Shown one piece after another: positions 7,182-21,167 of a DNA stretch of 24,930 bases; position 1 is the first letter of the stretch, and each line of letters opens with the position of its first letter. The translations under genes were made by a program, and so were the position numbers. The stretch is from Clostridiales bacterium. Its GTDB lineage: Bacteria; Bacillota; Clostridia; Monoglobales; Firm-18. The DNA is taken from the NCBI GenBank assembly GCA_031255355.1, contig JAIRSR010000077.1, positions 1 through 24,930 of the forward strand, in the 5' to 3' direction. The notes beneath the pieces were generated by a model, which searched no databases, was not told where the DNA came from, and worked only from the letters and a program-made list of their open reading frames with translations.

Positions 7182-9437
7182 TTAGCGGGCAGCATTGTAT
7201 AGCCGATACAGGATAGACGCGGCTTCGGCGCGTGTCGCCGCCTCATTTGTCCGTGGGTATCCGTTTTCGTACAGCCGCGCGAACAGTCCGTAGGCGATTG
7301 CCGTCAAAACGTCCTCCCGCGCCCACGCGGAAACACCCGATAAATCCTTAATGCCAAGCGCGTCAACCGATAGACCGCCCTGCCGCGCAACACCCCCGCG
7401 CAAACGGTACGCGCGGTTCGCGGCGGCGGCGATTTCCTCCGCCGTCACTTGGTCGTCAGGCGCGAAAACCGCTTCCCGCTTGCCTTTCAAAACGCCCTTG
7501 TAAAAAAGTCCGTCCGCGCCGTCCGCGTACCACGCGCCGTCAGGTACGTCAGTGAAATGCTTCGGATAGCCCCCGCCAAGCCCCAGCACCCGCGCCAGCA
7601 TCACCGCAAATTCCGCGCGTGTCACGGGTTCATAGGGCGCGAACACCGTCGCCGTCTTGCCTTGAATAAAGCCCAAATCGGTCATTTTCGCGATTTCATT
7701 CCGCGCCCAACAGCCGTCTATGTCGGCGAACGCCGTTTCAACGGGCGCGTCCTCCCGTTCGCCGCCCGCCTGCCCGCCCAAGCCCGCGATTTCCGCCGCC
7801 GTTTCAAGGGTCAGCACCGCCAAACTCTTGTTCGGCATATGATAATTCTTGAAATTCGCGGTGTTCCGCTCCGTCGTCACCGCCGTCACAATATCCGCTT
7901 CTTTCGCGCTGTAAATAAAGGATTGCGTGTTCGGCGCGGTGAACACCGTTTCGCTTTTCAGCGTGTAATCATGCTTCAAATCAAAGGCGATATTGAAGTC
8001 AAGGTCTTCCCGCATATTTACCAGAATAATTTTCAAACGGTTCCCGCCCTCCGCCGTCACCAACGCGCTCATTCGGAGGTTGTCGTCCGTTTCGTCCGTC
8101 ACCGGGTCGTCAGAGGTCAAAACGCTCCGCACCACGCGGTCGCCCAGACCGCCGGCATAGACGTGGTACATCTGCCCAACGGGTGATTGGTATAACGTGC
8201 CGCCGACGTACTGCGCCAAGCCCCACCAGCGGCTTTCCTCCCCGCCGTCAAAAAAGGAGTGATACGTCGCGCCGCCCATATCGCCGCGCTTCATCATGAC
8301 GTTAAAGAACTGCGCCGTACTCAGCGCGGAAAATAAATTGATTCTGCCCGCGTCGTCCAAGCCCTCGTCCGCGAAACGCGCGTGTTCCGTCAATAAAAAC
8401 TTCACGCCGTGCCCCGCGCCCAAAACACGCTCCAACGCGTCCGACATATCGTCGAACAAGCCGCTCATGTACGCCGTGGACATGCCGTCATAATAGGGGT
8501 GGAACGCGAGGTAGTCGCAATCCGCGCCAATCGCCCGCGCAACCCCCTCCGTCCATTTGATATGCGATTCCGCTTCGCTCCAAGGCGCGGTTTTGCCGCA
8601 CATGACAAACTTCGCCTCCGGCGCGGCGGCGCGAATCGCCGCGATATGCTTCGGCGCGATTTCAGAGTACCATTCCAACTTCGACTGTGAAAACGCCCAC
8701 ACATTATCCTGTTCCGGCTCGTTCAGCGCGGAGTCGATTTCATTCCCCAACTCAAAAGCGAACACGTTCACCGGCTCCGTCATGCCGTACATGGCGCGGA
8801 GTGCCCCCCACTCGGACTGCCCCGCCTCATGCGTCAAAAACGCGGCGAGGTTGGCGTTGTCCTCCGGCGTGGCGTGTGTGACGGAAATTGTGCATAAATA
8901 CTGACCGTTCGGGTTGATGGACCGCATCAGTTTGACGAACTCCAACGGCCCCATGTTGGTCGCCACGCGTCCCTCACTGCCAAGCGGCGAGACGTCCCGC
9001 GTGTACTTGTTGCCGTCCACCCGCGCACTGCCGGAGCGGGTATTCATTTGCCCGATATTCAAAATCAAATTCGTTTCCTCAATCGCCGCGCCGCCGTACC
9101 GAAACAGCGGAAAGTCAAACACACGCGGCGCGAACGCTTGAAATTCGGGCGCGAAGTCCGTTCCCTCCAGGATATGTCTGTGGCTGCTCTCGTACTGCAC
9201 TCCCAGCATTTCCATCACCGTCGCGTGGAGAGGGTCGTCCTCGTCCACTGTCAAAACAGCGTCCGCCGTCGCGGTTGCGGTCACACTTTCCCGCAATCGC
9301 GCCTGTTCGCTGTCATTCAACGCCGCGTACGCGGGAAGCGAAAGGGTACACGCCGTCAGCAGTAACAGCGCGATACATTTTTCATACCTTCGGTTATACC
9401 TTCGGTTATACCTGCGGTTATACACGCGGTTATACAC
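7182..9437 (-). CDS. Secreted, SLH-anchored clan GH-A glycoside hydrolase, GH51-like and divergent (P5)
   Basis: Likely GTG start at 9437, 8 nt after GGAGG (the ORF track uses 9446). Signal peptide, then W..LR.MYG..EP, FELGNE (acid/base), DYLAFHPYY, LLTEH (candidate nucleophile) and a C-terminal beta-sandwich. Three SLH repeats at about 7190-7730 (TRAE, TAEE, TRAE). Confidence 0.8.
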   Translation of the reverse strand: MYNRVYNRRYNRRYNRRYEKCIALLLLTACTLSLPAYAALNDSEQARLRESVTATATADAVLTVDEDDPLHATVMEMLGVQYESSHRHILEGTDFAPEFQAFAPRVFDFPLFRYGGAAIEETNLILNIGQMNTRSGSARVDGNKYTRDVSPLGSEGRVATNMGPLEFVKLMRSINPNGQYLCTISVTHATPEDNANLAAFLTHEAGQSEWGALRAMYGMTEPVNVFAFELGNEIDSALNEPEQDNVWAFSQSKLEWYSEIAPKHIAAIRAAAPEAKFVMCGKTAPWSEAESHIKWTEGVARAIGADCDYLAFHPYYDGMSTAYMSGLFDDMSDALERVLGAGHGVKFLLTEHARFADEGLDDAGRINLFSALSTAQFFNVMMKRGDMGGATYHSFFDGGEESRWWGLAQYVGGTLYQSPVGQMYHVYAGGLGDRVVRSVLTSDDPVTDETDDNLRMSALVTAEGGNRLKIILVNMREDLDFNIAFDLKHDYTLKSETVFTAPNTQSFIYSAKEADIVTAVTTERNTANFKNYHMPNKSLAVLTLETAAEIAGLGGQAGGEREDAPVETAFADIDGCWARNEIAKMTDLGFIQGKTATVFAPYEPVTRAEFAVMLARVLGLGGGYPKHFTDVPDGAWYADGADGLFYKGVLKGKREAVFAPDDQVTAEEIAAAANRAYRLRGGVARQGGLSVDALGIKDLSGVSAWAREDVLTAIAYGLFARLYENGYPRTNEAATRAEAASILYRLYNAAR

Positions 9438-9440
9438 GCG
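9381..9440 (-). repeat. Five-copy 12-bp imperfect tandem repeat spanning the P4 stop and P5 start
   Basis: Minus-strand units: CGCGTGTATAAC, CGCGTGTATAAC, CGCAGGTATAAC, CGAAGGTATAAC, CGAAGGTATGAA. They encode (R)VYN RVYN RRYN RRYN RRYE in P5. Confidence 0.95.
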
Positions 9441-12210
9441 GCGCACCTCCTTTCAAGCCCGAAAGATAAATCATCTTGGCGGTTTCGGCGCGTGTCGCCG
9501 TTTCGTTCGGCGCGAACGCGCCGTTTCCCCGCCCGGAAACGATCCCCGCGAGTTGCAGTTGCGTCACCGAATCGAACGCCCACTCCGCAATATCGCCGTA
9601 ATCACTGAACCATGCCGTTGTTTCGGTAATCGGCAAGGAAAGCCCCTTGTTCCCCAACGCGCGTACCACAAGAACGGCAATCTCCTGCCGCGTGATTTCA
9701 CGCTCGGGGTGAAAACGGTTCGCGCCGTCGCCGTAGACGATTCCCGCTTCCACACCCGCCTTGACGTAGCCGTAATACCACGCCGCAACGGAAACGTCCT
9801 CAAATAGCAGCGGTTCGGATTCCCGTTCTGTTTCCGGCGCACCCTCGCCGAACGCGGTCAGAACGATTTTCAAAAATTCCGCGCGGGTAATCGCGCCGTC
9901 GGGACGGAACAAGCCGTCCTCATAGCCGCCCACCGCGCCAAGCGCGGTCAGATAGCGGGTCGCCTCGTAACTCCAATGGTCGATCGGGACATCATTGTAA
10001 AGCAGTGTTTTGCCCACCGCCGTACCGTCTGACGGCACAACCGGCGCGGGGGGCGGGGGGTCTAAGGTAAAGCCGCCTCCCCCTCCTCCGCCGCCGCCTT
10101 TTCCTCCTGTGGAGGACGGCTTGACCGGGGGTGTTTCCGGCGTGAAGCCGTCAATAAAGTCCTTGAGATCCTCTATGGTTTGCAGGGTATCCTTTTGTTG
10201 CAGCAACCCTGTATAAAACGCGCGGTTGCCGGCGGTATCCAAGTGTAAGGCGGAAAGCCGCGCCGCGTCATACCCGATCACGCCGCTGAAATCCGTCGTG
10301 ATTTGCCGCATATACTGATAGGTGTCACAGATGCCGAACGCGGTCAGCAGCAACGCCTCATCAAAGCGTTTCGCCACGTCCGCAACGTTTTTGAACTGAA
10401 CGTTTGTCAAACGCGACAGCACCGCCGCTTCCCGCCCGTCATAGTACTGCCCGCCCAGCGTCAAGCCGAACACGGCGTTATGTTCCCGCAACGCCGCCAG
10501 CACCTCCTCCGGCGCGGATAAGCCGTTCAAGCCGCCGACCGCGATTTCGTCCGCGAGGACGCGCTCCAAATACCGCAAATCCTCAAGCCCCGCGCAGGAG
10601 AACGCGGGATAGGTAGCAACACGCTCCAAATAATCCGCGTAAGCGGCGGGGTTCGTCTGTTTCAACGCCGCCGCCGGGGATGCGTCGATTATATCGATCC
10701 GTTGCAGGCTCAAATCGCCGCTTCCCGTGATGATTCCGTCCATCGCGGCAAAATCCTTGGCGGCGACGGCGGCGTTGAGCGCGTCGGTAATCAGCCGCTT
10801 TTGCGCGAAATACCGCGCCGTTTCGCCGCGTTCCGCCGCGTAGGTGTACTCACTGACGACCCGCGCCTTAACCGTAAGCGTTTCCGCGCCGCGTGACGCG
10901 GTAATTTGCGTATCGCCCTCACGGATTCCGTACAACGCGCCGCCGCGCATTTCCGCGACGTCCGGTCGCCGTACGCTCCACGCTATGCCTGTTTCGAGCG
11001 CACCGCCGATTCGCGCCCGCAACGCCAACGGATTCCGCAAAAACGCGATAATTTCCCCCGCCGGCGCGGACGCGCCCGAACGCTCCTTGCCGTACACGTG
11101 GATAAAATCCACTTGCAGGTGGTCGTCGTTCACGGACGAACGGTTTACGCCGAGTTGCAGCAGCATATCGTCCGTGCCGCGCCGCATCAGCCCGCCCGCG
11201 TCAGTCAACGTCAATACCGCGCTCATGGCGGCGTTTCCGCTGTTGCGCACGTCCGCTTTTACGGTGTTTTCCGCCCTGTCCAGCGTGATTTCCATATCAT
11301 ACCAAGCGGTATAGGCAAAATTATCATTGCCGTTGACATAATCCACCGTTGCGCCGTCCACTACCTTGCGGATATACGGACGGTAGGACATCGGCTGCGG
11401 GAACAGCGTATCGCCGTTCCCGAGGATTCCCGCCTCGTAATACGTCCTCTCGTCCTCGCTGACGCAAAAACGCACCGACGCGCGAACACCGTTATACCGC
11501 GCGAATTTCATCGTAACGCGGCTGAGGTCGCGCTCTGACGCGGCGGGGACGTGCAAATTCACAAAGCCGTCATGCGTTCCGCTCTGTTCCGCGACTTGCA
11601 TGGTCGCGTCCGTGCGAATGTACAGCATCACACCTCTGTGCGGGTTGTTGATGTAGCCGACCGATACATCAGAACGCTGCCAATAGCCCTCGCCGTTCGC
11701 CGCGACTACCGTACCGCCGTCCCCGGGTAAATCGTCCCCGCGTACCGCGTTCGCCCTGTCGTAGCGGGAATTCGCGGCATTGTACGTCGTGAACGCGTCA
11801 CTGAACACACGCGTTTCGGCGGCGGAAGCGGTGTTCTCGTACCGCGCGTCTATCCGCGTAAAGACCGAAACCGCCGCCGCGTCCACCTCTTGCGGGAACA
11901 CAATGCCGGAATACGCCGCGTCCGCGTCTTGGTTCAAAAACAGCCCGCCCGCGTCAAAAAAAGCGGAAACTGTTTGCGGCTCCGCGCCCGTAAACTCCAG
12001 CGTTACGGTACGCCCCGCCAACGGCGGGTAAGCAACCAAAGCGACTGCCGTTGGCGTTTCAAAGGTAACGGTGCTTCCCACGGCAAAAACAGCGGTTTCT
12101 TGATACATAGCGGAATTTTCCGCCGACGCGTACGCCCCGCCGTGAGCGGCGCATAGGGCAAGCGCGGCAAACAACGCCAAAATCCTGCTTTTTTGTATCT
12201 TTAACATCAT
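9430..12210 (-). CDS. Secreted multidomain SLH protein, 926 aa, no recognisable catalytic motif; candidate scaffold or glycan binder (P4)
   Basis: GGAGG RBS and signal peptide. Domains: ~240-aa beta-rich domain shared with P1 (11089-11808); Ig-like domain (IAWSVRRPDVAEM..GDTQITAS); alpha-helical repeat region (about 10147-10812); Pro/Gly linker (TPETPPVKP..GGKGGGGGGGG..PPPP); three canonical SLH repeats (TRAE, TRQE, TRAE). Confidence 0.85.
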   Translation of the reverse strand: MMLKIQKSRILALFAALALCAAHGGAYASAENSAMYQETAVFAVGSTVTFETPTAVALVAYPPLAGRTVTLEFTGAEPQTVSAFFDAGGLFLNQDADAAYSGIVFPQEVDAAAVSVFTRIDARYENTASAAETRVFSDAFTTYNAANSRYDRANAVRGDDLPGDGGTVVAANGEGYWQRSDVSVGYINNPHRGVMLYIRTDATMQVAEQSGTHDGFVNLHVPAASERDLSRVTMKFARYNGVRASVRFCVSEDERTYYEAGILGNGDTLFPQPMSYRPYIRKVVDGATVDYVNGNDNFAYTAWYDMEITLDRAENTVKADVRNSGNAAMSAVLTLTDAGGLMRRGTDDMLLQLGVNRSSVNDDHLQVDFIHVYGKERSGASAPAGEIIAFLRNPLALRARIGGALETGIAWSVRRPDVAEMRGGALYGIREGDTQITASRGAETLTVKARVVSEYTYAAERGETARYFAQKRLITDALNAAVAAKDFAAMDGIITGSGDLSLQRIDIIDASPAAALKQTNPAAYADYLERVATYPAFSCAGLEDLRYLERVLADEIAVGGLNGLSAPEEVLAALREHNAVFGLTLGGQYYDGREAAVLSRLTNVQFKNVADVAKRFDEALLLTAFGICDTYQYMRQITTDFSGVIGYDAARLSALHLDTAGNRAFYTGLLQQKDTLQTIEDLKDFIDGFTPETPPVKPSSTGGKGGGGGGGGGFTLDPPPPAPVVPSDGTAVGKTLLYNDVPIDHWSYEATRYLTALGAVGGYEDGLFRPDGAITRAEFLKIVLTAFGEGAPETERESEPLLFEDVSVAAWYYGYVKAGVEAGIVYGDGANRFHPEREITRQEIAVLVVRALGNKGLSLPITETTAWFSDYGDIAEWAFDSVTQLQLAGIVSGRGNGAFAPNETATRAETAKMIYLSGLKGGAPRV

Positions 12211-13364
12211 CGCGATTCCTCCGTTTCCGCGTTTCGGGGTAACAGCCCTGTGAAGAAACGCGCGGCATTTGTAAATACAAACGTCTTGACTTCCGGCGCG
12301 TTTACGTAAAAGGGTACGGTGACTTTCGGGGTCGAAACGGTCAGAGTACTCCCGGGCGCAACGCTTGCCGTCCCCGTGTACAGGCGCGATAGCCGCCCGC
12401 CGTCCGACAACGCCGCCGCCAAAAGGATTTCCGCCGCAGTATCGGTGTGATTCGTAACGTCTACGGAGTAAACGCCGTCCCGCTCGACCGCCGTGGAAAT
12501 ATCAATCCCGCCGTAGGGACGGAACGTAACGCCGAACGTACAACGCGCACCGAAAAAGTCCGCTTCCAGCGTAACCGTGCCGACAGACGCGCCGAGGTAG
12601 ACCAAATTGCCGTCCTCGATCCGTCCGTCACCCGCCGTCACGCGGTAACGCACCAAATCCGCCGCCTCAATCACTTCCCTCACGCCGTCCGAATCGATCC
12701 CCACGGGACGCGCCGCGCCAAGCGGCATAACGGCGCCGCGCCAATCCCCGCCCTTTATGTCAAGGCCGACGGGTGCTGAATGAATGGATAAATCGTCAAT
12801 ATAAATTTTATCATAAGTGTTATCCGACGCGCTCTGACGATTGATGTTAATCATGAAATCGACAAAATTATGCGCGTCATACCGCGCGAACGGAAACGAA
12901 CCGTACACCTTGTACCAGCCCCCGCCCGCCGCTTCCGCGCGAAAGGAAGCGTCCGCCGCCGCGTCGCCGCCCGAACCGCCGCGCATGACCACCAACGGCG
13001 CGACGCGGTCAGACATTCCTCCGTACACACCCTTGATATAGTACGAAAAGTATAACGCCCTACGGCGAATCGTATCGGTAATCACGCCGGACGGCACCGA
13101 ATAGGACAGCGCGGAAAGTCCCGTGCCGCTCCTGTAACTGATTTCCAGGGAACGCTTGCCGCTGTAACGCTCCGCTTCGGTATGCGCGGCGGCAAAGCCC
13201 GCGTCGTTGTGAAAATAATAATTATGGGTGCGGTCACTTTCCATATTCGCGGCGCCGTATTGACTGACGACCGCGCCGTACAGCCTGCGCTCATACGCCG
13301 CCCCCGCGCGGGGAAACAGCAAAATCACCACGGCAAGCGCGGTAAAAACGCGCGTTCGTGTCAC
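12207..13364 (-). CDS. Secreted non-catalytic protein: CBM4/9-like beta-sandwich, Ig-like domain and shared C-terminal domain (P3)
   Basis: Likely GTG start at 13364, 8 nt after AAGGAG (the ORF track uses 13373). Signal peptide ending RAGA-AY. CBM-like pattern YSGKRSLEI..FSYYIKG..GWYKV..IYIDDLSI. No SLH. Confidence 0.75.
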   Translation of the reverse strand: MTRTRVFTALAVVILLFPRAGAAYERRLYGAVVSQYGAANMESDRTHNYYFHNDAGFAAAHTEAERYSGKRSLEISYRSGTGLSALSYSVPSGVITDTIRRRALYFSYYIKGVYGGMSDRVAPLVVMRGGSGGDAAADASFRAEAAGGGWYKVYGSFPFARYDAHNFVDFMININRQSASDNTYDKIYIDDLSIHSAPVGLDIKGGDWRGAVMPLGAARPVGIDSDGVREVIEAADLVRYRVTAGDGRIEDGNLVYLGASVGTVTLEADFFGARCTFGVTFRPYGGIDISTAVERDGVYSVDVTNHTDTAAEILLAAALSDGGRLSRLYTGTASVAPGSTLTVSTPKVTVPFYVNAPEVKTFVFTNAARFFTGLLPRNAETEESR

Positions 13365-13369
13365 GCCGA

Positions 13370-15973
13370 TCACTCCTTTATTAAATATACGTCGGTCAGC
13401 GGACGGAGGGAATTGTCCTCCAAGATCAACGCCCGCGCCAACGCCGCGCCGATTACCGTCGGCGTTCGTACCAAGGGGGAAATTTCCCCGCCCGCCGCAA
13501 CGCCCTCCGCTTCACTTACCGCAACGGCGGTGAGGTTGCCCGCGCCGTCATAAAACGCCAAATACACTTGTACGGAAGCAATCGCCGCGTCCCCGAGGTT
13601 TTGTAAGCCGATAGCCGCCGTCCGCTCCTCCGTCAGCATCCCTAAGGTCAGCCGCGCCCCGTCCTCCGTCCGCAAAGGCGCAATCACGCGCACGGCTTCC
13701 CCCGGTTTGACAAAATCAAGTTCCGTTTCAAACACATCATGCTCCGTTGTGATGCGCAAACGGTACGCGCCCGATACCGCGTCACGCGGGAAAAGCAGTT
13801 CATACCGCTGTGCCGCGCCGAATTTGGTTCCCGCCCCGGCGTAGCGGAGTTCTCCGTCAGCCGCGCTTGTCAGCGTCACGCCAAAGCGTTCGCCGTCCCG
13901 CGTCCGCGCGTCGTTCCAATAGATATGGAACGCCGTTTCATAATCGCCGTTCGGTTGCGAGAGCGGTTCCAACCGCGTCACCGCGCCGCTCGCCCGATAG
14001 TCCAGCCGCACCGTCTTTTGCGCCGCGCCCGCGCCGACGCGCAGGAAATATTCGCCGTTCGGCAACCCGGGCGGCAGCAACGCCTCAAAATAGCCCCTGT
14101 TCCGCGCGATTCCGTCCGCTTGCGCCATGTAAATCACGCCGTCCGGCGTAAGTTCGGGCGATGCGGGATCGGACGCGAACAATACGGCGGTCAGTTCTGA
14201 AACGCCGTTTAACGCGCCGTTTTCAAACAGGGAAAATTCCACCCGCACCCGCTCCGCCGTCACAACCGGCGCGGTATAGGTATCGGCGGGTACGCCGTTC
14301 ACCCGCAGGGAAACCGCGTCATTCGCGGTGTATTGCCGCTCCGTCGGCACAAGGTAATATGCCGTGATGGTCTTTGCGCCGATTGTCTGTGCGGGAACGT
14401 CCGCCGCGTGGATTCGCTCTGCCTTTGCGACCATCGCGTCAGGCGCGGTAATGTCGGTCAGCGGGCCGTTATCCGAGGCGTCGCTTGCTGCGGTGAGGGT
14501 CACGCGTTTTTCCAGTTTATAGTTGTTTTGCGTGGAAAAATCCAACGTATGCGCGGCGTTGGAGGCGTTTACGGCAAGGAGGTTCAACCCGCCCTCCGCT
14601 GTCGTATGCGCCGATACCGTCAAGGTATGCGCCGTGGTTCTCATGTTGTCGCCCGTGACCCGCACCGAATCCACCCCGAACGCGTCAGACGCTAATTTGA
14701 AAAACTCACCCACGCCGGAAAGCGCGAAGCCGAAATCGGGGAACGCCCGCATCAAGCCCCACACCCCGCCGCCGAACGCGTCAGCCGCCGAGGGATAGTC
14801 CATTGTCGTGTGATACACCGCAATCGGCGCGTCAGGGGACTTAATCAAGCGGTTCACCATGTCCGCCGTGGATAGCGTCCCCGCGCGGCCTGTCGCGATG
14901 GTGCGCGAGGCGGTGTTGTAATGTTCCACCCCGCCGAACACCGCGTGTTCCGACAAAAACGGCGCGGGCATCTTTTCTGCGGGAAGTCCGTCCGTACAAA
15001 TGCCGTATCCGTCCCATGTCCAACGGCTGTCCGCATTGAAATACCGATACATACTGCCTGTGTTGTGATAATAGCAATGCACAACGATATAATCCAGCCT
15101 GTCGCTCAATTCCTTTAACAGCAGGTTGATTTTCGTGTTAAACACCGAATATTTTGTTTGGGACTCATGCGGCGTAGTGCAGGACTGCACCGCCAGCGGC
15201 ACGTTCGGGTTGACTTCCCGCAATGCGGGGACGATCGCGCGGCACCACGCGGCGTACATGTCCCCCGCTTCGCCGTAAATCCGATCGTAAATCGCCTGTT
15301 TCTGCGCCGAAGTCCGCGCCGCCGCGAGTTCCGCCCGCACCGCGTCCGTTTCCAATATTTGATTGAAATAAAACCAATCCGTTTCGTTGCCCAACTCTAA
15401 CGCCGCCAAGTTGACCGGCTCCGCAATGCCCGCCTCTACGCGGCGGGAAGCCCAGTTCACGCCGTCCGCGCCAATCGCGGCGGGGTCGCTCGGCATCAAA
15501 GTCAAAAACCGTACCAAATCACGCAAATTGTCCAAATCGTCCTCCACCCGAATGGTAAAGGCAAAGGCGGCGTTCGGCGTGAGGTTCGCGCGGGCGCGAA
15601 TCCATTCCGCAAGCCCGAATGTGTACACCTGCGAAAAATCGTTCACCCCGCGCGATTCCAACGCGCCGACGGTTTCTTTCCAATTAAGGGTGTGCAAAAA
15701 GGCGCGGGCAATCGGGAAGCCGACGCCTGTTTTTTGAAACGCCTCCGCGAAGTCGTTTCGTACCGCCGCGGACGAACCGTTTGCCGCAGAGCCGAAAAAG
15801 CCTATATCGTCATTCAAACCCAGTACCCTTCGGTCTGACGGACGAAGCGCGGCGTTTTCCTCTACCGTAATCGTATATGCCGCCGAAGCCGCGCGGGGAA
15901 GCGAAACGCAAGCGATACTCGCGGCAATCAACGCTACGGCGGTGCGCCGCGCGGTGTGGTTCACCCTCCTCAT
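13370..15973 (-). CDS. Secreted clan GH-A glycoside hydrolase, GH51-like and divergent, with two Ig-like domains and the shared C-terminal domain; no SLH (P2)
   Basis: AAAGGAGGT RBS and signal peptide. Motifs W..RR..AG..EP, LELGNE, DYIVVHCYY, FLSEH. Paralogue of P5. Confidence 0.8.
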   Translation of the reverse strand: MRRVNHTARRTAVALIAASIACVSLPRAASAAYTITVEENAALRPSDRRVLGLNDDIGFFGSAANGSSAAVRNDFAEAFQKTGVGFPIARAFLHTLNWKETVGALESRGVNDFSQVYTFGLAEWIRARANLTPNAAFAFTIRVEDDLDNLRDLVRFLTLMPSDPAAIGADGVNWASRRVEAGIAEPVNLAALELGNETDWFYFNQILETDAVRAELAAARTSAQKQAIYDRIYGEAGDMYAAWCRAIVPALREVNPNVPLAVQSCTTPHESQTKYSVFNTKINLLLKELSDRLDYIVVHCYYHNTGSMYRYFNADSRWTWDGYGICTDGLPAEKMPAPFLSEHAVFGGVEHYNTASRTIATGRAGTLSTADMVNRLIKSPDAPIAVYHTTMDYPSAADAFGGGVWGLMRAFPDFGFALSGVGEFFKLASDAFGVDSVRVTGDNMRTTAHTLTVSAHTTAEGGLNLLAVNASNAAHTLDFSTQNNYKLEKRVTLTAASDASDNGPLTDITAPDAMVAKAERIHAADVPAQTIGAKTITAYYLVPTERQYTANDAVSLRVNGVPADTYTAPVVTAERVRVEFSLFENGALNGVSELTAVLFASDPASPELTPDGVIYMAQADGIARNRGYFEALLPPGLPNGEYFLRVGAGAAQKTVRLDYRASGAVTRLEPLSQPNGDYETAFHIYWNDARTRDGERFGVTLTSAADGELRYAGAGTKFGAAQRYELLFPRDAVSGAYRLRITTEHDVFETELDFVKPGEAVRVIAPLRTEDGARLTLGMLTEERTAAIGLQNLGDAAIASVQVYLAFYDGAGNLTAVAVSEAEGVAAGGEISPLVRTPTVIGAALARALILEDNSLRPLTDVYLIKE

Positions 15974-16003
15974 GTGCTTCTACCTCCTTTCGCGCGGACG
16001 CGC

Positions 16004-17887
16004 TTAATCAAGATTGATTGTGGGGCATAAGGGCGAGAGCAGAGCAAAGCCGTCCTCCGCCCAAAGGAATAGCCTGTGCGCACTGCCGACCTCCTCCGAA
16101 AGATTCAGCGTAACCGGCGCGGCAATACTTTCCGCCGGAACCTTTTCAAAATCGAAGCCAATCAGCCTGTTGCCGCTGTAACTTGCGGCAAGCACGGTAA
16201 TATATTCCGTAACCTTGGACGCGTAAGCGGCGGGGATGCTCACCGTAACCGTGCCGCCGTCCACTTCCCAATGCAACCGCCCCGCTACGCCGGAAACACT
16301 GACGGCAGCAAACTGATTGAAGTCGTTTTCGTTTGCGGATTTTGAGCCGGCTTGGAAAATAACGTCATCCGTCCCACGGTTCAAAAACGCGCCGTCGTCC
16401 GTCAAGGTAACGCTCCACGCGTTGTTCCCCGCGTCATATTCCTGCTCCTTGCTTCCTCTGAACGTAATCCCGCCGGAAGCCGCGTCTATCGTAATCACCG
16501 CGTTCATCCAAGAGGTTCCCCCCGCCGTGGCGGAGGTTGCCGCCGCGTAAGCCGTCTGTATGCCGTTGACCACTTTGCGGAGGTACGGACGCGCCCCGCC
16601 GCTCTCGTGAATGCCCGCCTCGTAAAAACTTTGCTCATCACTGCTCACGTTAAAGCGCATGACCGTCTGTACACCGTTGTACTTCGCGAATACAACGGCG
16701 ATTTTCGTCACGTCATACGCCGCCGCGCCGGGGGAATGCAGGTTAATCAAACCGTACTCTATATCACTTTGCCCGGAAATATTAAGCGATCCGTTGATAA
16801 ACGCGCGAACGCCGTCGTAACCGCCGGCAACGTACCCCTTGAACACGTTGGAACGTTTCCAATAACCGTTGACGTTCGGCCGGGCGTCGCCCACCACCGT
16901 CGCGCCGCCGGAATCCGCCGTCGTGCCGCGCACCGCCGTCCCCGCCGTCGTTTTCGCGTTGTTCGCGTTGTATGCGGAGAAATCATCATAGAAGATATTG
17001 ACCTCTCTGTTCGGCGTGCCGTAAATATCCACATAATCTACCGAAACCCGGTTATTTTCATTGCGGGGACGAAGCCACGCGCCGCCGATTTGGAACACCA
17101 TATTGCCTATGCCTCTTTCGAGGAATTCCCCCTGTTCCGTGTATACACCGCTGTACAGCACTGTGTTATCGTTGCCGTTTTTCAGGGTATATGAAATTGT
17201 TTTCGCGTCCTTGTCAATGTCCACTTCAGAGATAAACCATGAAGTACCGCCGTGTGTTTGCGTATCCGCTGCCACAAGTTCCGTCCCATGTCCGTTTACC
17301 ACCTTGCGGATATAGGCGTAGCCCGTTTTGCCGCTGCCCGCTATCGTTTCCTCATTTGCTCTCAATCCGCTAAGCCCTACCTCGTAAAAGGACTTCTCAT
17401 CCGCGCTGACGTTAAACCGCTGGATTGCCCGCGCGTCGTTATACCGCGCGTATCTTACCTCAAACTTCGTCAAACTGTAATCCACGGCGCGGTCGGAGTA
17501 CAAATTCACCATAGACTGTTCCCATGTGCTGTGTCCCGCAATTTCAAGGGTGTCATCGCCCTCGATAAACGTTTGTATGCCATACGCGCCGATGTCCGTG
17601 TTAATCCACCCCGTACCCGTTTCGCTTACGTTAGAACGCTTCCAATAGCCGCCCAACGCCGCGCGGTCGTCCGCTACCACCGTCGCGCCGCCGGAATCCG
17701 CCGTCACGCCGCGCACCGCGTTTGCCTCGCCCCTTTTGGCGTTGGCGTCGGTGTAGGTATCAAACTCGTCATGGAATATGAGCGCACCCTCAGCCGAAGC
17801 GGTAACCGGCGCGATTCCCGCCAACATACCGCACAGCAGCGCGAACGCCGCCAAAACCGAAATCCCTCTTTTGATGACCTTTAACAT
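16004..17887 (-). CDS. Secreted protein with two tandem copies of an unrecognised ~240-aa beta-rich domain and the shared C-terminal domain; no SLH (P1)
   Basis: AAGGGGG RBS; signal peptide ending ASA-E. Internal duplication 17018-17779 versus 16289-16996. Confidence 0.85.
   Translation of the reverse strand: MLKVIKRGISVLAAFALLCGMLAGIAPVTASAEGALIFHDEFDTYTDANAKRGEANAVRGVTADSGGATVVADDRAALGGYWKRSNVSETGTGWINTDIGAYGIQTFIEGDDTLEIAGHSTWEQSMVNLYSDRAVDYSLTKFEVRYARYNDARAIQRFNVSADEKSFYEVGLSGLRANEETIAGSGKTGYAYIRKVVNGHGTELVAADTQTHGGTSWFISEVDIDKDAKTISYTLKNGNDNTVLYSGVYTEQGEFLERGIGNMVFQIGGAWLRPRNENNRVSVDYVDIYGTPNREVNIFYDDFSAYNANNAKTTAGTAVRGTTADSGGATVVGDARPNVNGYWKRSNVFKGYVAGGYDGVRAFINGSLNISGQSDIEYGLINLHSPGAAAYDVTKIAVVFAKYNGVQTVMRFNVSSDEQSFYEAGIHESGGARPYLRKVVNGIQTAYAAATSATAGGTSWMNAVITIDAASGGITFRGSKEQEYDAGNNAWSVTLTDDGAFLNRGTDDVIFQAGSKSANENDFNQFAAVSVSGVAGRLHWEVDGGTVTVSIPAAYASKVTEYITVLAASYSGNRLIGFDFEKVPAESIAAPVTLNLSEEVGSAHRLFLWAEDGFALLSPLCPTINLD
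16289..17779 (-). repeat. Intragenic tandem domain duplication in P1 (third copy in P4 at 11089-11808)
   Basis: Both copies share IF.D.F..Y..NAK, AVRG.TADSGGATVV, GYWKRSNV, A.YN, RFNVS.DE.SFYE.G, Y.RKVVNG, GGTSW and RG...FQ.G. Confidence 0.9.
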
Positions 17888-19784: not shown

Positions 19785-21167
19785 TTACCGCACGGGGTTC
19801 CAACCGGGAATGTCCCGCGCTTTTGGGTCGCGATCCGGGTGCGTCGCGTAATACCGCTGTTTCGCGTCGTTTTTTAAGTCGGTATACTTCACTAACGCGT
19901 CCTTGACCGGCGTTTTGCCCGTCCACACTTCCGAAAGGAAGTATTCGTAAAATTCGGGCTGTCCCCCCAATACAGAGGAAATATTCGGCTCCCACGAGGT
20001 GCGGACGCTAATCTCCGTCAACGCGCAAAACTCTTTCCAGCCCTTTGGCGCACCGTCCAAAGATACGTCCTTGACCGTTTGCCAATTGTAAGGGATTTCC
20101 ACCCCCGCTTGGTAAGTGGAAGTAACAAAATCGTCGCTTGTGAAAAATTTAAGCACTTCCATGATTACATCGCCGCCCGCATCGGAAAGTGCCTTGCGCG
20201 TGACGTAAAACGTAGAGCCGAACTCCATACGCTGTAAGTATTTTTCCGCGCCGTCTACCGTGGGATACGGCGCGACGCCCCAATCAAACTGCGCGGGGAA
20301 CTGGTCGTTGTACACGCCTACGTCAAAGGAATACGCCATTTTCATTCCGATTTTCCCAAGCGCGAACTGTGCCCGCGCGGGGTCGTTATCCAAGCCCTCC
20401 GCGCCGGGGTAGATGCTGCCGTCCTCTTTCATGCCCAAATACGCGCTCATAATCGGCTCTAACGGCGTGTAATCATAAATTCCGGTACCGGGATTGTACC
20501 CCTCGTGCCCCGCGCTGCTCAGCAGCGGGTGCAGAAATTCGCTCCCGAAAAACCCGCCCCATTTCAGCGGCAAAATAAAGCCGTACTCCCGCTTGTCCGG
20601 GTTGGTCAGCCGTTTCGCGTATTCGCGGAGTTCCGCGTAACTTTTCGGCGGCGTAGGCTCGCCGTTCGCGTCCACGATTCCCGCCGCGCGGAACATTTCC
20701 TTGTTATACACCATGCCCTGTGTCGCCGCGCCGTAGGGCAGGGAATAGTACTTGTCGCCGATATAATTCCGCTCTACCCGCGCTTCGTCCTTGTACTTGT
20801 CAATCAGCGCGTTGCCGCCCGGCAACTCATTATACGGCGCGATGAAGTCCGATTCCACCATTTTTTCCACGTCAACGCCCGCGATAAATAAATCCGGCGC
20901 TTGCCCGCTTTGCAGCGCGAGTTCGATCTGTTGGGTCAGCGCGCTGCCCTCCTTTACGACGTAATCTATCATGACGCCCTTTTTCGCGCCCGCATCCTGG
21001 TTCCACGCGTTAATCAGCCTGTCATAAATCGCTTTGCTGCCGGTGCTGTCCGACCAAATGACGACCTTTTTTACCCCGCCGTCCGTCTGTCCTCCCCCGC
21101 AGCCCGCAAGCAAGCCTGTGAGCGCGGTCAAGATGAGTGCCGCCGCCAACTTTCGCTTACCAATCAT
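19785..21167 (-). CDS. Carbohydrate ABC transporter substrate-binding lipoprotein (SBP family 1)
   Basis: GGGAGG RBS; lipobox LLAG-C23; typical SBP1 segments SGQAPDLF, YSLPY, MVYNKEMF, DWGVAPYP. Confidence 0.95.
   Translation of the reverse strand: MIGKRKLAAALILTALTGLLAGCGGGQTDGGVKKVVIWSDSTGSKAIYDRLINAWNQDAGAKKGVMIDYVVKEGSALTQQIELALQSGQAPDLFIAGVDVEKMVESDFIAPYNELPGGNALIDKYKDEARVERNYIGDKYYSLPYGAATQGMVYNKEMFRAAGIVDANGEPTPPKSYAELREYAKRLTNPDKREYGFILPLKWGGFFGSEFLHPLLSSAGHEGYNPGTGIYDYTPLEPIMSAYLGMKEDGSIYPGAEGLDNDPARAQFALGKIGMKMAYSFDVGVYNDQFPAQFDWGVAPYPTVDGAEKYLQRMEFGSTFYVTRKALSDAGGDVIMEVLKFFTSDDFVTSTYQAGVEIPYNWQTVKDVSLDGAPKGWKEFCALTEISVRTSWEPNISSVLGGQPEFYEYFLSEVWTGKTPVKDALVKYTDLKNDAKQRYYATHPDRDPKARDIPGWNPVR

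Follow-up and report, generated by a model that had tools for sequence, protein, structure and literature searches.

We analysed a 24,930-nucleotide stretch of DNA (hereafter the window), which is contig C192 of a 1.37-Mb, 281-contig metagenome-assembled genome (MAG) of a Clostridiales bacterium that is 55% complete. Three consecutive genes of the window encode secreted proteins, P1, P2 and P3, that share a C-terminal domain, the tail, and this domain represents a real, large and uncatalogued family resembling fibronectin type III (FN3) domains. An earlier note, made from the sequence of the window without database searches, saw the family correctly and proposed the tail as a candidate docking or sorting module. 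That interpretation is plausible, and the shared C-terminal module is real, but it was more specific than the evidence allows. Our preferred reading, which we hold tentatively, is that the tail may be a non-catalytic binding or retention module. The genes of interest all lie on the minus strand; the three tail genes and their tails are as follows.

16004-17887, minus strand: P1 gene (627 aa), encoding a signal peptide, two beta-rich domains of ~240 aa and then the tail domain

16007-16264, minus strand: P1 tail domain, residues 542-627 of P0001, reaching the final residue of the protein

13370-15973, minus strand: P2 gene (867 aa), encoding a signal peptide, a catalytic domain, beta-sandwich domains and the tail domain

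13373-13627, minus strand: P2 tail domain, residues 783-867 of P0002

12207-13373, minus strand: P3 gene (388 aa), encoding a signal peptide, unassigned cargo, the tail domain and a 19-residue extension

12267-12479, minus strand: P3 tail domain, residues 299-369 of P0003, a degenerate copy that has lost the FxW/PL end of the motif

Compared directly with one another, the three tails are not significantly similar: pairwise BLASTP gave E values of 0.15-3.7, MAFFT with only the three sequences aligned them out of register, and a word-indexed homologue search using the P1 tail as query returned nothing beyond itself. The family signal emerges once paralogues from the same genome join the comparison, and the observation is therefore confirmed at the profile level only. 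Using phmmer to compare each tail with all open reading frames (ORFs) of the genome, we obtained many weak matches, nearly all of them at the extreme C-termini of other long ORFs, which visibly carry the motif described in the earlier note. Twelve of these C-terminal ends were used as a seed and iterated over the ORFs of the genome, converging on 28 proteins. The alignment of these 28 own-genome tails, A2, has the consensus AxY..G.L ... KxFxW.....LxPL, in agreement with the pattern hhhAxY(D/S)G..L ... (K/R)hFhW....PL previously proposed from the three tails. The sequences are only about 20% identical to one another.

As a control for circularity, we seeded and iterated a hidden Markov model (HMM) without any sequence from contig C192. 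P1 (E 9.8e-5, 19.1 bits), P2 (E 3.1e-4, 20.1 bits) and P3 (E 1.2e-3, 16.7 bits) were the top three remaining matches of this leave-out HMM, all of them C-terminal, while the following ORF, which is not a member, scored E 0.05. A second HMM, built from 168 domains of 134 foreign proteins only, detected P3 (E 1.4e-8, 32.1 bits), P2 (E 1.8e-6) and P1 (E 4.6e-6), and recovered 28/28 of the own-genome copies together with about five further candidates. Both control HMMs thus place all three proteins in the family, with the tail where it had been proposed; the relationship is not significant in pairwise or three-way comparison but becomes so with profiles that were not trained on these sequences. 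We consider it nearly certain that the family is real. The suggestion that P3 holds the weakest copy also stands: its tail is the most degenerate, with the W/PL motif missing from the last strand region.

AlphaFold2, run on A2 with the P1 tail as query, predicted an eight-strand sandwich with a mean local confidence score (pLDDT) of 93.7 and a predicted template modelling score (pTM) of 0.83. The model of the P3 tail has the same strand order as that of P1, with a pLDDT of 82-92 in the core and 53-58 in the last 17 residues; one common family alignment was used for both, hence the two models are not mutually independent. In a Foldseek search of the PDB, the nearest structures were FN3 domains and monobodies (template modelling score 0.6-0.7, E about 1e-3). 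VIA-align against 48,161 chains likewise returned FN3 domains, with Z scores of 8-9.4, a range that the tool itself flags as common, and root-mean-square deviations of 2.4-2.7 Å over 81-87 residues; Ig-like domains of GH2 enzymes came next. Neighbours among the AlphaFold Database clusters and in the ESM Atlas were unnamed Bacillota clusters without Pfam families, and the cluster names of family members were uninformative. The tail is accordingly described here as a predicted FN3-type beta-sandwich domain of ~85 residues that has not been catalogued.

In line with the earlier note, which assigned the tail no known function, Pfam lacks the domain altogether and NCBIfam has next to nothing on it. 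No relevant Pfam family matched the 28 own-genome tails, with fn3 (PF00041) absent even at E <= 1, and the Pfam families of carbohydrate-binding modules (CBMs) gave no sequence match. A PDB sequence-profile search yielded only a weak match, to the N-domain of dextranase 3VMN (E 0.037). The sole curated family with any match was NCBIfam FxLYD_dom (NF038353). The isolated P2 tail, alone among the tails, reached its cut-off (23.8 against 23 bits), over profile positions 10-50 of 71 only, full-length P2 fell below the cut-off (20.7 bits), and a match at E < 0.1 was seen in 3/28 tails and in none of the other 25. FxLYD and the tail have the pattern N.t...hhhh(Y/F)D..G.L in common, located in the first sandwich half, but the KxFxW...PL half is unalignable and FxLYD is not a multi-copy terminal module. 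When A2 was compared by hhalign with an FxLYD alignment made from nine genomic matches, the probability was 16.7% over 49 columns; FxLYD proper occurred in 8/151 genomes of the phylum, with one or two matches in each. On these two results we reject membership, and FxLYD is at best a distant neighbour of the tail, not its family. Literature searches on FxLYD, on Christensenellales and S-layer homology (SLH) domains, and on C-terminal sorting domains in Firmicutes retrieved no account of the tail domain.

Across the phylum the tail is sparse, and in this lineage of uncultured gut Clostridia it has expanded strongly. The half-complete 1.37-Mb MAG of the window carries at least 28 copies, and two further uncultured Clostridia MAGs carry 31 and 26. 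Among 31 relatives from the same family or order, the tail was present in 24 and absent from 7, with 0-61 copies each and several genomes at 36-61, while an even sample of the phylum contained it in 10/200 genomes, at 1-3 copies each. No copy was found in Bianquea renquensis, Acutalibacter caecimuris or a Ca. Fimadaptatus MAG, and none of the named species tested was a culturable tail carrier. Using HMMER to search 1.84 billion representative proteins, we identified 6,373 clusters at E <= 1e-3, 126 of them at E <= 1e-10.

The tail is strongly biased towards the C-terminus. In the own genome it ends 4-17 residues short of the stop in 26/28 proteins; one exception carries it just after the signal peptide of a beta-helix protein, and the other (contig C26, L005; P0162) consists of a signal peptide, a cohesin, the tail and then 129 more residues. 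Among the 149 best foreign proteins, the tail is the last domain in 122 (82%) and internal in 27 (18%), including copies ahead of a GDSL lipase, and 34 (23%) carry at least two copies, in tandem. At the six best loci of two other MAGs, the stop follows 1-12 residues past the tail match in 6/6 cases. The PL motif typically lies 7-8 residues from the stop, and no conserved last residue or cleavage motif was found at the tail end. The expectation that the tail would always be C-terminal therefore stands as a bias, but not as a rule.

Carriers are secreted and their cargo is diverse, both as had been anticipated. Eight own-genome carriers lack an N-terminus at contig ends, and the remaining 20/20 have Sec-type signal peptides as judged by eye (19 of the 20 were flagged by a crude signal-peptide rule). 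Across the 27 own-genome carriers scanned, Pfam content was nearly all different from copy to copy, comprising PL8, BspA-type leucine-rich repeats (LRR), esterase, cadherin-like, sortilin/BNR, CBM96, GDSL, Flg_new, F5/8-C, beta-helix, GH42/DUF4832, heparinase II/III, cohesin and metallophosphatase domains. Some tail proteins also carry a dockerin or a cohesin.

The window further encodes three proteins with SLH repeats and an exported protein with neither module:

9430-12210, minus strand: P4, with three C-terminal SLH repeats and the cargo domain of P1, without a tail

7182-9446, minus strand: P5, with three C-terminal SLH repeats, paralogous to P2 and to L002, a protein with a tail on contig C46

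4261-7143, minus strand: P6, with N-terminal SLH repeats at residues around 117-158, without a tail

19785-21167, minus strand: ABC solute-binding protein, exported, with neither SLH nor tail

The SLH proteins P4, P5 and P6 gave no tail-HMM match even at E <= 10, as the earlier note had supposed. Its statement that the tail sits on exactly the three secreted proteins without SLH holds within the six-gene enzyme block but not for the whole window, since the solute-binding protein carries neither, and we limit it accordingly. An SLH HMM developed from the repeats in the window gave 113 repeat matches in 53 ORFs of the own genome (G000), C-terminal in 31 and N-terminal in 18, and SLH was present in 31/31 relatives. 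This genome invests in surface proteins to an extreme degree: at 55% completeness, its 1.37 Mb hold 53 ORFs with SLH and no fewer than 28 with a tail.

Tail and SLH had been proposed to be mutually exclusive, and they do rarely co-occur. A single one of the 53 SLH ORFs in the own genome carries both (contig C70, L022; P0163), with an internal degenerate SLH-like pair (20.4 bits), a GH42/DUF4832 region and a C-terminal tail. Among foreign tail proteins, 2/150 have SLH, both as a C-terminal triplet, and one of these is a CBM96 protein with two tails. Exclusivity is nevertheless not strict, and the within-genome overlap of 1 observed against about 3 expected is not significant (Fisher p = 0.18, a crude estimate over a universe of 212 signal-peptide-like long ORFs). 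Internal copies and copies combined with SLH are two of the observations that the earlier note had named as counting against its idea, and both were seen to some extent.

Stronger evidence than these within-genome statistics comes from paralogues. L002, on contig C46, aligns with P5 at 44% identity over 517 aa (E 2e-132), and the alignment ends exactly where L002 enters the tail and P5 enters a linker and the SLH triplet. The two beta-rich domains of P1 match the single copy in P4 at 38% and 34% identity (E 2e-40 and 1e-35), and P2 matches the catalytic region of P5 at 25% identity (E 7e-11). These three pairs indicate that the tail and the SLH triplet are interchangeable at a single position on cargo of the same kinds. 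The two modules are thus alike in occupying one C-terminal position on paralogous proteins and in being highly expanded, whereas their fold and sequence are unrelated, SLH (PF00395) is also found N-terminally (18/53 ORFs), and the tail, unlike SLH, is missing from seven of the relatives. Contig C46 (loci L003, L002; C46:4229-4684) holds a paralogous version of the window block. The first of its proteins resembles the beta-rich region of P1 and P4 at its N-terminus by eye and ends in a tail; next comes the P5-like tail enzyme L002, and farther downstream the contig breaks off within a homologue of the P4 helical region.

This lineage puts the tail at the end of Sec-secreted proteins whose cargo is unrelated: polysaccharide lyases, glycosidases, esterases, a cohesin protein, and proteins of the LRR and cadherin-like types. 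As a binding or retention module it would hold the enzyme non-covalently on a component of the cell envelope, on its glycan substrate, or on both, filling the C-terminal slot that is taken by the SLH triplet in sister proteins, much as CBM37 does in Ruminococcus albus. Terminal position, diverse cargo, signal peptides, tandem copies, lineage expansion and the swap of anchors together favour a promiscuous functional module and speak against a spacer or a cap for one particular fold. A spacer role is disfavoured in particular because the tail is mostly the last domain, with nothing beyond it to space, while the tandem tails fit avidity-type binding modules. The cohesin-tail protein on C26 would also make sense if the tail were an anchor.

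The closest precedent is CBM37 of R. albus, which is present in 51-102 copies per genome on diverse cargo, sometimes in tandem and almost never with dockerins, and for which both attachment of enzymes to the cell surface and polysaccharide binding have been demonstrated (PMC4081043). Like CBM37, the tail is a non-catalytic module in the class of ~90-100 residues that is mostly C-terminal on unrelated secreted enzymes and non-enzymes; both occur at tens to about 100 copies per genome, sometimes in tandem, are restricted to a lineage and rarely accompany the organism's other attachment module. Both are also FN3-like, CBM37 by a Pfam fn3 match and the tail by its structural matches in the PDB. 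In contrast to the demonstrated binding of CBM37, that of the tail is putative, as is any ligand. The tail may work like CBM37 even though it is not a CBM37 member.

Membership was rejected on two comparisons. The A2 profile had no match at E <= 1 on the R. albus 7 plasmid pRUMAL02, whose GH11 xylanase gene we take to encode the published GH11-CBM22-GH10-CBM37 enzyme. As a proxy for CBM37, we used the C-terminal ~90 residues of WP_013483737.1, chosen from the architecture in PMC4081043, and hhalign of the tail against this region gave a probability of 1.7%. Plasmid pRUMAL01 was also searched; it has no GH11 gene and is hence uninformative on CBM37 homology. The C-terminal module of WP_013483737.1 (L083:1029-1430, R. 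albus 7 pRUMAL02) itself scored 25.8 bits against Pfam fn3, barely passing the gathering threshold of 25, which suggests that CBM37 is an FN3 derivative.

Several points weigh against a binding or retention role. Homology, fold class, copy number, position bias, cargo diversity and the swap with SLH are shown by the analysis; a binding function and its ligand are inferred. As far as the motif pattern can tell, the conserved positions look mostly like sandwich core, with no conserved surface site identified. The tails are acidic (median pI 4.6), as is the rest of the proteome, and so give no hint of wall binding. Exclusivity with SLH within the genome fell short of significance, as described above, and some tails share a protein with SLH, with a dockerin or with a downstream GDSL lipase. 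No flexible linker precedes the P1 tail. Finally, sequence comparison revealed no homology between the tail and CBM37, which limits the analogy to architecture.

A serious rival, which we think doubtful, is that the tail is a passive FN3-like structural unit that stabilises or caps its cargo or aids its folding, has no ligand of its own and was spread through the lineage by domain shuffling. No fold is commoner among the accessory domains of secreted enzymes, the closest structures in the PDB are generic FN3 and GH2 Ig-like domains (Z 8-9.4), the conserved residues appear core-like, no linker precedes the tail, and internal copies lie between other domains, for instance ahead of GDSL lipases. 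A unit of this kind is harder to reconcile with 82-93% of copies being the very last domain, and cargo of unrelated folds argues against a fold-specific cap. The presence of 20-61 copies per genome in one order and the clean swap with SLH in close paralogues suggest that the tail has a function of its own.

A bolder form of the retention idea would make the tail the address tag of a second enzyme-display system, independent of both SLH and cohesin-dockerin, specific to this order of uncultured gut Clostridia, carried by 20-60 secreted proteins per genome and binding a dedicated envelope receptor, either a polymer or a protein. We regard this form as rather improbable.

It is also unlikely, in our view, that the tail is solely a substrate-targeting CBM that binds a dietary or host glycan and not the cell. 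Many carriers are glycan-active (PL8, heparinase II/III, GH42/DUF4832, esterases, CBM96 proteins), an ABC transporter, a GH36 gene and an AraC regulator mark the window as a sugar-utilisation locus, and both the conserved aromatics Y, F and W of the motif and the tandem copies would suit such a module. Yet the tail is also found on BspA-type LRR, cadherin-like, cohesin, metallophosphatase and sortilin/BNR proteins, its specificity would have to be broad to serve enzymes that act on very different glycans, and no Pfam CBM family matches its sequence.

The arrangement of the window, in which a co-directional block has three tail genes directly followed by three SLH genes, could instead point to dockerin-like docking, with the tail plugging into a receptor domain on an SLH-anchored protein encoded nearby. 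On contig C46 the layout recurs, a P4-like gene lying downstream of two tail genes, and tail and SLH genes also adjoin on contigs C32 and C76. Across the genome, however, just 3/28 tail genes abut an SLH gene, although the contigs are short. The helical region of P4, considered as the docking partner, was detected with a single-sequence query in 3/30 relatives, none of them among those with 36-61 tails, a distribution that does not support it as a universal tail receptor. The tails are moreover about 20% identical, with no conserved surface motif recognised. This low adjacency, the distribution of the P4 helical region and the divergence of the tails weaken the docking idea, to which we assign a small probability.

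The resemblance to dockerins drawn in the earlier note is one of architecture: type I dockerin (PF00404), too, is a terminal module that goes promiscuously with secreted cargo of diverse kinds. Dockerin is a calcium-binding helical module, whereas the tail is an FN3-like sandwich whose P1 model is all-beta and which some proteins carry alongside a dockerin or a cohesin (PF00963). No Pfam match of the tails to dockerin, cohesin or CBM_X2 was obtained, and the 50 best matches of either PDB fold search (Foldseek or VIA-align) included no cohesin, dockerin or X2 domain, the best being FN3 domains.

The comparison with the C-terminal domain (CTD) of the type IX secretion system (T9SS) of Bacteroidota, also made in the earlier note, fares no better. 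Both are beta-sandwiches of ~80 residues in the case of the CTD (Por_Secre_tail) and ~85 in that of the tail, situated at the extreme C-terminus of many cargo-diverse secreted proteins; the tail reaches tens of copies per genome, with a fixed 7-8 residues from its PL motif to the stop. They differ in phylum and envelope, the T9SS-tail models of NCBIfam and Pfam do not match the tails, and the tail showed no sign of cleavage or of dedicated machinery, although no search was made for T9SS genes. A strict sorting signal is unlikely, and one that is recognised by a machine and removed in the manner of the T9SS CTD is very improbable given the internal copies (18%), the multi-copy proteins (23%), the own-genome copy near the N-terminus, the ordinary Sec signal peptides of all N-complete carriers, the grouping of the host GH36 gene with Clostridia and the absence of a conserved terminal residue or cleavage motif; nor do we know of any candidate sorting machinery for the tail.

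Uncultured Clostridia of this kind are found in human and animal gut metagenomes, and they devote a very large share of a genome of ~2-3 Mb to surface and secreted proteins. With a domain of ~6,400 clusters absent from Pfam and effectively from NCBIfam, the localisation of dozens of glycan-degrading enzymes per genome goes unannotated. A role of the tail in retention or targeting would account for the way in which that half of the enzyme sets which is without SLH stays with the cell; the tail would then represent a CBM37-like strategy outside R. albus and offer a simple marker with which to predict surface-associated enzymes in metagenomes. Should it prove to be a passive FN3 unit, a domain model would still be worthwhile, since the annotation of thousands of proteins is now broken.

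The window as a whole is a glycan-utilisation locus. Following the direction of transcription, the first genes encode an oxidoreductase and a regulator of the AraC type; an ABC sugar transporter (the solute-binding protein and two permeases) comes next, followed by P1, P2 and P3, which have signal peptides and are without SLH, and by P4, P5 and P6. The P3 start codon is a GTG that overlaps the P2 stop. The last genes encode a GH36 alpha-galactosidase, a dehydrogenase and a TIM-barrel enzyme; the nearest matches of the GH36 gene are from uncultured Clostridia/Eubacteriales MAGs, with Bianquea renquensis also near. The ~240-residue beta-rich domain of P1 matched no Pfam family, and P3 matched no family of Pfam or NCBIfam. 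The catalytic domain of P2 (E 9e-5) and P5 (E 2.7e-9) each matched the NCBIfam arabinofuranosidase (ArfA) model weakly and none of the glycoside-hydrolase families in Pfam; the two proteins, divergent paralogues of each other, may belong to a poorly catalogued glycosidase subfamily.

The own genome contains a single dockerin match (C257) and two cohesin matches, one in the C26 protein (L005/P0162) and one weak, from which we conclude that it holds a minimal cohesin-dockerin pair and not a cellulosome. Elsewhere, a foreign protein (P0014) on a 70-kb JGI metagenome contig (L090) combines three tails with a weak cohesin match, and is flanked by a giant ORF of 9,357 residues on one side and a cohesin and SLH protein of 383 residues on the other.

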